A stretch of DNA of 5,359 nt from Escherichia phage phiX174. The position numbers and the translations under genes are program-made. This document shows, piece after piece, positions 2,368-3,935 of the stretch; the first letter of the stretch is position 1, and the number at the start of each line of letters is the position of its first letter. The stretch lies in the sequence record AF299300.1; one strand, given 5' to 3'. Under the pieces are notes generated by a model. That model did not search any database. It saw only the letters and a program-made list of their open reading frames with translations, and was not told the DNA's origin.

Positions 2368-2895
2368 ATGTTTCAGACTTTTATTTCTCGCCATAATTCA
2401 AACTTTTTTTCTGATAAGCTGGTTCTCACTTCTGTTACTCCAGCTTCTTCGGCACCTGTTTTACAGACACCTAAAGCTACATCGTCAACGTTATATTTTG
2501 ATAGTTTGACGGTTAATGCTGGTAATGGTGGTTTTCTTCATTGCATTCAGATGGATACATCTGTCAACGCCGCTAATCAGGTTGTTTCTGTTGGTGCTGA
2601 TATTGCTTTTGATGCCGACCCTAAATTTTTTGCCTGTTTGGTTCGCTTTGAGTCTTCTTCGGTTCCGACTACCCTCTCGACTGCCTATGATGTTTATCCT
2701 TTGAATGGTCGCCATGATGGTGGTTATTATACCGTCAAGGACTGTGTGACTATTGACGTCCTTCCCCGTACGCCGGGCAATAATGTTTATGTTGGTTTCA
2801 TGGTTTGGTCTAACTTTACCGCTACTAAATGCCGCGGATTGGTTTCGCTGAATCAGGTTATTAAAGAGATTATTTGTCTCCAGCCACTTAAGTGA
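2368..2895 (+). CDS. G: Major spike protein G (175 aa)
   Basis: ORF track frame 2323..2895; canonical start is the ATG at 2368 ([18 protein letters not shown]...), preceded by AGGAG at 2356-2360 with 7-nt spacing. Stop TGA 2893-2895 lies inside the H Shine-Dalgarno. Confidence 0.93.
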
Positions 2896-2903
2896 GGTGA
2901 TTT

Positions 2904-3890
2904 ATGTTTGGTGCTATTGCTGGCGGTATTGCTTCTGCTCTTGCTGGTGGCGTCATGTCTAAATTGTTTGGAGGCGGTCAAAAAGCCGCCTCCGGTGGCA
3001 TTCAAGGTGATGTGCTTGCTACCGATAGCAATACTGTAGGCATGGGTGATGCTGGTATTAAATCTGCCATTCAAGGCTCTAATGTTCCTAACTCTGATGA
3101 GTCCGCCCCTAGTTTTGTTTCTGGTGTTATGGCTAAAGCTGGTAAAGGACTTCTTGAAGGTACGTTGCAGGCTGGCACTTCTGCCGTTTCTGATAAGTTG
3201 CTTGATTTGGTTGGACTTGGTGGCAAGTCTGCCGCTGATAAAGGAAAGGATACTCGTGATTATCTTGCTGCTGCATTTCCTGAGCTTAATGCTTGGGAGC
3301 GTGCTGGTGCTGATGCTTCCTCTGCTGGTATGGTTGACGCCGGATTTGAGAATCAAAAAGAGCTTACTAAAATGCAACTGGACAATCAGAAAGAGATTGC
3401 CGAGATGCAAGATGAGACTCAAAAAGAGATTGCTGGCATTCAGTCGGCGACTTCACGCCAGAATACGAAAGACCAGGTATATGCACAAAATGAGATGCTT
3501 GCTTATCAACAGAAGGAGTCTACTGCTCGCGTTGCGTCTATTATGGAAAACACCAATCTTTCCAAGCAACAGCAGGTTTCCGAGATTATGCGCCAAATGC
3601 TTACTCAAGCTCAAACGGCTGGTCAGTATTTTACCAATGACCAAATCAAAGAAATGACTCGCAAGGTTAGTGCTGAGGTTGACTTAGTTCATCAGCAAAC
3701 GCAGAATCAGCGGTATGGCTCTTCTCATATTGGCGCTACTGCAAAGGATATTTCTAATGTCGTCACTGATGCTGCTTCTGGTGTGGTTGATATTTTTCAT
3801 GGTATTGATAAAGCTGTTGCCGATACTTGGAACAATTTCTGGAAAGACGGTAAAGCTGATGGTATTGGCTCTAATTTGTCTAGGAAATAA
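2904..3890 (+). CDS. H: Minor spike / DNA pilot protein H (328 aa)
   Basis: ORF track 2904..3890, 328 aa, [16 protein letters not shown]...[16 protein letters not shown] precedes the ATG. Gly/Ala-rich N-terminus and Gln-rich coiled-coil region typical of H. Confidence 0.95.
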
Positions 3891-3899
3891 CCGTCAGGA

Positions 3900-3935
3900 T
3901 TGACACCCTCCCAATTGTATGTTTTCATGCCTCCA
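3900..3935 (+). promoter_or_regulatory. Candidate sigma70 promoter PA in the H-A intergenic region
   Basis: TTGACA at 3900-3905, 17-nt spacer, TTTCAT at 3923-3928 (weak -10); predicted start around 3935, inside the downstream hairpin. Confidence 0.45.

Follow-up and report, generated by a model that had tools for sequence, protein, structure and literature searches.

Laboratory adaptation as the probable source of six substitutions in pilot protein H of an evolved phiX174 genome

Gene H and the pedigree of the genome

The stretch of DNA analyzed here (the window, 5,359 nt) is a complete phiX174-type genome that shares 99.7-99.9% identity with phiX174 records. Gene H lies after G and before A and encodes 328 aa, as in phiX174-type genomes, and its product matches the Pfam family PF04687 (Microvir_H) with E=2e-213 and 707.9 bits against a cut-off of 22.7. 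When the whole genome is aligned to NC_001422.1, H carries exactly six nucleotide differences and none further, and the two translations disagree only at residues 17, 42, 64, 67, 75 and 170. The features are listed below with the branch of the isolate pedigree on which each change was gained, where Anc is the laboratory ancestor AF176034.

2904..3890, + strand: gene H (DNA pilot or minor spike protein), 328 aa, from the list of open reading frames; 2931-3917 in NC_001422.1
2952..2954, + strand: codon 17, GCC>GTC, A17V; base 2953 C>T (reference 2980); gained on C to CG
3027..3029, + strand: codon 42, AAC>AGC, N42S; base 3028 A>G (reference 3055); gained on Anc to C
3093..3095, + strand: codon 64, CCT>TCT, P64S; base 3093 C>T (reference 3120); gained on C to CG
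3102..3104, + strand: codon 67, GCC>TCC, A67S; base 3102 G>T (reference 3129); gained on Anc to C
3126..3128, + strand: codon 75, GCT>GTT, A75V; base 3127 C>T (reference 3154); gained on C to CG
3411..3413, + strand: codon 170, AAT>GAT, N170D; base 3411 A>G (reference 3438); gained on Anc to C; in hendecad 2 of the tube-forming coiled coil
2948..2953, + strand: lost NarI site, GGCGCC>GGCGTC, a by-product of A17V

These are the codons at which the earlier note had suspected substitutions relative to the reference. The alignment confirms all six and returns zero other mismatches in the protein. The note had also suspected that the second GGCGCC, near the start of H, might be absent. In the Sanger reference and in Anc this NarI site occurs at 1019 and 2976; the window keeps the first only (window 992), and the second is indeed gone.

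The top matches of the window genome are phiX174 records of the AF2993xx group, several of them likewise 5,359 nt long. Records AF299300-AF299314 stem from one unpublished chemostat evolution study, begun from the laboratory ancestor AF176034 (PMC2935103) and credited to Rain & Wichman in PMC2935103 and PMC3606162. By isolate name, the 14 named records fall into a pedigree: C, CM, CGGlo with CGGhi, CMMlo with CMMhi, and the tips, whose names end in C or Mhi. We reconstructed it by parsimony from an alignment of 16 genomes as a tree of 14 branches. Relative to the Sanger sequence, the window carries five markers of the laboratory ancestor (833A, 1650G, 2811T, 4518A and 4784T). These lie at window 833, 1623, 2784, 4491 and 4757, correspond to reference changes 833 G>A, 1650 A>G, 2811 C>T, 4518 G>A and 4784 C>T, and are all common to AF176034; they are stock markers and did not evolve in the window lineage. 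All four changes of isolate C are present in the window, and so is each change common to the CGGhi and CGGlo clades; it lacks those confined to one of the two. Nothing separates it from the parsimony ancestor of these clades, and it has no private base. Because the window equals this ancestor and CG is the only node name missing from the records, its most probable identity, reached by elimination, is isolate CG of the Wichman-lab chemostat series. CGGhi and CGGlo each contain every derived state of the window. CGGhi (AF299304.1) has an H gene and H protein identical to those of the window and shares with it a 27-nt deletion between J and F, and differs by seven extra substitutions, at 324, 1727, 2591, 3932, 4110, 4168 and 4861.

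Ten substitutions and the 27-nt J-F deletion separate the window from Anc. The earlier note had allowed for differences elsewhere in the genome that it could not detect, and these are present as the deletion and four other derived substitutions:

756: D:F123L, synonymous in E
1991: F:S340P
2677: G:P104S
4778: A/A* T275T, synonymous

On the branch from Anc to C, N42S, A67S and N170D arose in H together with D:F123L. On the branch from C to CG, A17V, P64S and A75V were joined by F:S340P, G:P104S, the synonymous change in A and the J-F deletion. All six H changes are therefore derived relative to AF176034 and were fixed in two steps, and since they were gained on successive branches, the H cluster is the sum of two passages and not one mutational event.

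The culture conditions can be read tentatively from the isolate names. Table 2 of PMC3606162 lists for this series five Salmonella chemostats at 42 C or more, plus six chemostats at 37 C of which five were on E. coli and one on Salmonella, and PMC2935103 counts three Shigella lineages and two lineages at 32 C across all experiments. Published environment counts match the fifteen names exactly if C denotes passage on E. coli C at 37 C, M on Salmonella and G on Shigella sonnei, with lo meaning 32 C and hi at least 42 C, and it is from this match that we infer the decoding. A later record from the same town, labelled 'XC+M...', has Salmonella as its listed host. Under the decoding, the window lineage would have grown first on E. 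coli C and next on Shigella, the latter at 37 C. [quoted passage not shown]

Recurrence and distribution of the H substitutions

We scanned 50,697 phage records by megablast with 55-nt queries centered on each variant, so that every 28-nt megablast seed contains the variant base. The alleles were distributed as follows:

A17V: 30 records; S13, wild WA4 and several other experimental series
N42S: 18 records; the AF299300-AF299314 series and EF380021/28/29/30
P64S: 17 records; at least five series
A67S: 22 records; the AF299300-AF299314 series and the GQ1539xx/JF7197xx/JQ7649xx group
A75V: 8 records; the CG clade, AF176032 (SCSC1) and HM775306 ('gamma')
N170D: 11 records; AF2993xx records only

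Translation places N42S in AF176032 (SCSC1) too. All alleles except N170D, five of the six, thus recur in other experimental series. Inside the AF2993xx pedigree, A17V was gained again in CMMhiC, and one descendant of the window proceeds to V17I. P64S was gained again in CMMloC, and with other series included its lineages are CG, CMMloC, SC2 and the HM7537xx/HM7753xx/EF380018 records; the same proline is replaced by histidine in CMMhi and EF380021 and by leucine in HM775306. Codon 67 carries valine in EF380021. Codon 170 was gained as Asp twice (Anc to C, CMMhi to CMMhiC) and lost twice (CM to CMMhi, CGGlo to CGGloMhi), and D170 is kept in CGGhiMhi and CMMloMhi, so that the reversal is not universal.

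Not every recurrence need be an independent event. The GQ/JF/JQ records all share A17V, A67S and E85Q, which points to a probable single origin, and a common stock may lie behind some recurrences that seem independent. The parallels within the series could also be inflated if chemostats contaminated one another or their phages recombined; the recurrences in other series and in natural phages are unaffected by this. The question arises for CMMhiC, which relative to CMMhi gains 2980T, 3438G and 3932G, loses the 27 nt between J and F, and goes back to the earlier state at 560, 1533 and 2167. All of these states, gained or reverted, occur in CGGhi-type genomes. The return to E. coli C could have brought parallel changes and reversals, or a contaminating lineage could have recombined with this one; the latter would need several crossovers because the CMMhi-specific H states are retained.

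Wichman & Brown regard a site as adaptive when at least three independent events fall on one residue (PMC2935103). Codon 17 reaches this number through CG, CMMhiC and the step to V17I, plus the other series, and codon 64 does so through P64S, P64H and P64L in several lines. Codons 42 (C, SCSC1 and EF3800xx) and 75 (CG, SCSC1 and HM775306) each change in about three lineage groups, which make three events only if the groups are independent. The same proviso applies to codon 67, where A67S is found in C and in the GQ/JF/JQ stock and A67V in EF380021. Codon 170 shows four events, all inside one series where chemostat recombination or contamination is possible.

Natural relatives divide the two steps. 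Val occupies residue 17 in S13 and WA4, and Leu in G4; S13 and G4 share Ser at residue 64; at residue 75, alpha3 has Val and G4 has Ile. The phiX-like phages and G4 all keep N42, A67 and N170. On this comparison of sequences, the second-step trio (A17V, P64S and A75V) converges on natural states, and the first-step trio does not. IMG/VR scans for the N42S, A67S and N170D alleles returned none, a negative that is nearly weightless because the ancestral control pattern matched only one contig.

Six of the ten substitutions since AF176034 fall in H, which makes up 18.3% of the genome (binomial p=0.004, post hoc), and five of the six H changes lie within 59 codons (scan-statistic p=0.02). That all six are nonsynonymous is not significant for the window alone (p=0.22). 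Of the 27 substitution events that H underwent over the 14 branches of the series tree, every one is nonsynonymous (P=0.001 under the mutation spectrum observed), and the ratio of nonsynonymous to synonymous events, 27/0 in H vs 70/16 in other coding sequence, differs significantly (Fisher p=0.009). The H events are also unevenly placed along the gene: codons 1-80 hold 16 of the 27 (p=1e-4) and codons 136-170 another nine, and no event lies past codon 189. The share of H in the whole series tree (27 of 119 events) shows no significant enrichment (p=0.13). Only the first two branches, and only certain segments of the gene, show the excess in H.

Competing readings and the protein context

The H changes of the window are real, derived and ordered; they recur in independent lineages and converge in part on natural relatives. 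We conclude that they are very probably laboratory-adaptive substitutions of a known chemostat series. The earlier note had proposed host-range or laboratory adaptation. Laboratory adaptation stands, given the chemostat series, the derived changes and the recurrence of five of the six elsewhere; host range fares poorly, as A17V, P64S and A75V arise in lines on E. coli C and in lines on Salmonella alike.

The readings that compete with laboratory adaptation differ in how much of the pattern they can accommodate. We give negligible probability to the idea that the differences from the reference are not real or that the window is a natural phiX-like strain, for example S13. The note had granted that its reading would fail if the reference already had V17, S42, S64, S67, V75 and D170; NC_001422.1 and AF176034 both carry the six ancestral residues A17, N42, P64, A67, A75 and N170. 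Natural S13 H (AF274751 / M14428) does have V17 and S64, as the window does, but it keeps N42, A67, A75 and N170 and has three other H differences. Across the genome the window differs from S13 by 120 substitutions and from WA4 by 260, whereas it differs from Anc by 10, and it is because of those 120 sites that we reject a natural S13-like strain. It is also very improbable that the cluster is neutral or mutation-driven, its members being hitch-hikers or the product of a local mutational hot spot such as cytosine deamination in ssDNA. Three of the six H changes are C>T, the commonest damage-type mutation of single-stranded DNA, as are four of the six substitutions gained from C to CG, all of them within reference 2704-3154, and the six nonsynonymous changes of the window carry no significance alone (p=0.22). 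Against this stand the 27 nonsynonymous and 0 synonymous H events of the series tree (p=0.001; Fisher p=0.009), the varied residues that replace the same codons (P64S/H/L, A67S/V, A17V then V17I), the reversal and return of codon 170 and the accumulation of the changes in two steps, one branch after the other, instead of all at once.

For the second-step trio, the rival to be taken most seriously is adaptation of host range to Shigella, in which A17V, P64S and A75V would fit H to the lipopolysaccharide or envelope of a new host (our reading of G as Shigella sonnei). Work cited in PMC2935103 ties H to host recognition on genetic and biochemical grounds and shows that it binds LPS, the name decoding from published counts, including the 5/5/0/1 split in PMC3606162, puts the step from C to CG on Shigella, and G:P104S and F:S340P were gained on this same branch. 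Even so, we consider host-range adaptation improbable. If the three alleles answered to one host, they should be specific to it and revert when the host is switched; they occur in lines passaged on E. coli C, on Salmonella and on 'G'. In passages ending on E. coli C, A17V is found in CMMhiC, P64S in CMMloC and A75V in SCSC1, alleles of the trio are also present in the Salmonella-host records AF176031 and HM753705, and V17 and S64 are natural in S13. In PMC2935103 the compilers state that there is no direct evidence of any H change answering selection for host recognition, and PMC3606162 describes the H hot-spot changes as evenly distributed over environments. Among the six H changes, only N170D shows a partial dependence on conditions.

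Laboratory adaptation agrees well with what has been compiled for phiX174. The compiled data hold 105 substitutions at 48 H sites (PMC2935103), and the general picture that Wichman & Brown 2010 (PMC2935103) and also Brown et al. 2013 (PMC3606162) give for H, of parallel and missense-only changes, matches that of the window. Whatever the host or temperature, residues 136-170 of H form a hot spot (PMC3606162), with N170 of the window at its edge. C2980T (A17V) arose in seven experiments, is also found in wild phage and 'may affect ejection' (PMC3606162). It is the only one of the six window positions named in the available text of PMC2935103 and PMC3606162, the other five being unnamed there. 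Because H changes are spread over hosts and temperatures, high MOI was proposed as the common selective agent, and other H changes may reflect competition for limited sites of second-strand synthesis (PMC3606162). The finding itself is already known, as an identical H is deposited in AF299304, the series is cited in two syntheses, A17V is named and the 136-170 hot spot is described. What is added here is small: the order of the six changes, the convergence of the second step, the loss of proline at codon 64, the series A to V to I at codon 17 and the toggling of codon 170. The window is an experimentally evolved phiX174, neither the reference nor the sequencing-control strain, and its H differences are a familiar signature of chemostat adaptation. 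This has little importance beyond quality control, apart from nominating concrete residues for the study of the membrane helix, the linker and the coiled-coil tube in genome delivery.

The residues fall into three contexts in the protein. The H protein forms a decameric conduit that carries the genome across the envelope (PMC7354561), and its N-terminal helix has been proposed to serve in passage through the cell wall (PMC3606162). The boundaries of the predicted N-terminal membrane helix were taken from the description in PMC3606162 and from reading the sequence directly. Within residues 3-23, small residues form one stripe (G3-G7-S11-G15-S19-G23) and hydrophobic residues spaced i/i+4 form another (I5-I9-L13-A17-L21), of which A17 is the only small member. 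A second context is the Pro/Ala-rich segment 61-79, a mutational hot spot in which V61I, P64S/H/L, A67S/V, S70N, F71L, V72F, A75V, A77S and A79V are found across lines. That P64 gives way to three different residues suggests that selection favors losing the proline. The solved structure covers H 143-282 (PDB 4JPP chain A), where 139 of 140 residues are identical to the window and N170D is the sole mismatch; the remaining five substitutions fall in the N-terminal portion, outside the solved fragment. A single-sequence AlphaFold2 model of H reached a mean pLDDT of 50.8, with residues 1-99 all below 50, too low to place these five changes. Close to them in the gene, an in-frame 3-nt deletion (reference 3007-3009) in seven genomes of the CM clade was scored as K27del, just past the N-terminal Gly-rich helix, and is followed by A28D in one CM sub-lineage.

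Residue 170 is position 9 of hendecad 2, directly after Q169 (PMC7354561, Table 1). Gln is repeated at positions 1 and 8 of all three hendecads, Q169 being one of these (PMC7354561). If these Gln positions face the lumen, as we assume, an ideal 11/3 wheel gives a geometric estimate that residue 170 points about 82 degrees off the lumen direction, toward the neighboring helix of the ten-helix barrel. By this ideal-wheel estimate, as distinct from coordinates, N170 is probably not lumen-facing. Substitutions of the coiled coil have been made in Fane-lab mutants of the H-tube lumen (T244Q, M251Q and Q241S/Q247S), which have temperature-dependent genome-delivery phenotypes (PMC7354561), and an action of N170D on DNA delivery would thus have a precedent. 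Those mutants differ in being engineered, inward-facing and near the C-terminal end of the tube, whereas N170 lies in hendecad 2 near the N-terminal end.

Returning to laboratory adaptation, N42S, A67S and N170D were fixed first and A17V, P64S and A75V second, and both sets were very probably positively selected. By the mechanism we propose, the six substitutions may tune early-infection functions of H for dense continuous culture, presumably membrane insertion, assembly or stability of the tube, and delivery to replication sites, while leaving host range unchanged. A17V would enlarge the sole small residue in the hydrophobic stripe of the predicted membrane helix, a change that the series continues from V to I. 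Loss of the proline at 64, together with A67S and A75V, could remodel segment 61-79, and N170D would add a charge in the early hendecads of the coiled coil that, on the ideal wheel, faces the neighboring helix of the decameric DNA-delivery tube. Likely targets of selection would be the speed or efficiency of ejection or tube formation, competition for limited replication sites at high MOI, or both. Any specific biophysical account of the six substitutions is tentative, and we think it rather unlikely to prove right as it stands.

Codon 170 may allow a narrower reading. Reversals in the coat protein F on host switching (Crill et al. 2000, summarized in PMC2935103) offer a likeness, as codon 170 was gained in two passages ending in 'C' and lost in two 'Mhi' passages, although here the protein is H and not F. 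Conceivably, then, codon 170 works in the DNA-delivery tube as a switch that depends on conditions, with Asp favored when the phage grows on E. coli C at 37 C and Asn restored on Salmonella at 42 C or more, a proposal that we regard as unlikely. It would go along with the series A to V to I in the N-terminal membrane helix and the repeated loss of proline at codon 64. If it were true, deposited genomes would name testable residues that tune the assembly or stability of the tube and the membrane insertion of the pilot protein.

Other changes in the genome and the series

The 27-nt deletion at window 963/964 (reference 964-990) removes the entire J-F intergenic terminator hairpin 'TJ' (GGGGCUUCGGCCCC plus a T-tail). 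The wild-type stretch folds into a hairpin, whereas the window version is unstructured, and immediately upstream of the F start codon TTGAGGA becomes TTAAGGA. The deletion junction is found in 14 records from three series (AF2993xx, AF176028/30/32 and HM775309-11), and it has three origins in the AF2993xx pedigree: C to CG, CMMlo to CMMloC and CMMhi to CMMhiC. Adaptive changes in the J-F terminator are mentioned in PMC3003669 and PMC3606162.

Next to the base of the synonymous A/A* T275T change, reference 4804 C>T (A:T275M) is present in three separate descendants, CGGlo, CGGhiC and CGGhiMhi. Its three separate appearances suggest that it was already polymorphic in the CG population or strongly favored after 4805G. 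In the F-G intergenic region, where a primosome binding site is located (PMC3606162), two overlapping and independent deletions, of 20 nt and 15 nt, fall within reference 2288-2307 in two different clades, CGGlo and CMMhi.

Complete phiX174 genomes at 99.7% identity are also held in three records filed under other names, MZ417522.1 ('Mycolicibacterium phage J1', 24,953 nt), MT947439.1 ('Protaetiibacter phage SSC1') and PP417747.1 ('Enterobacteria phage ST5386'), and in each the phiX174 sequence looks like carry-over of a sequencing control into the assembly.
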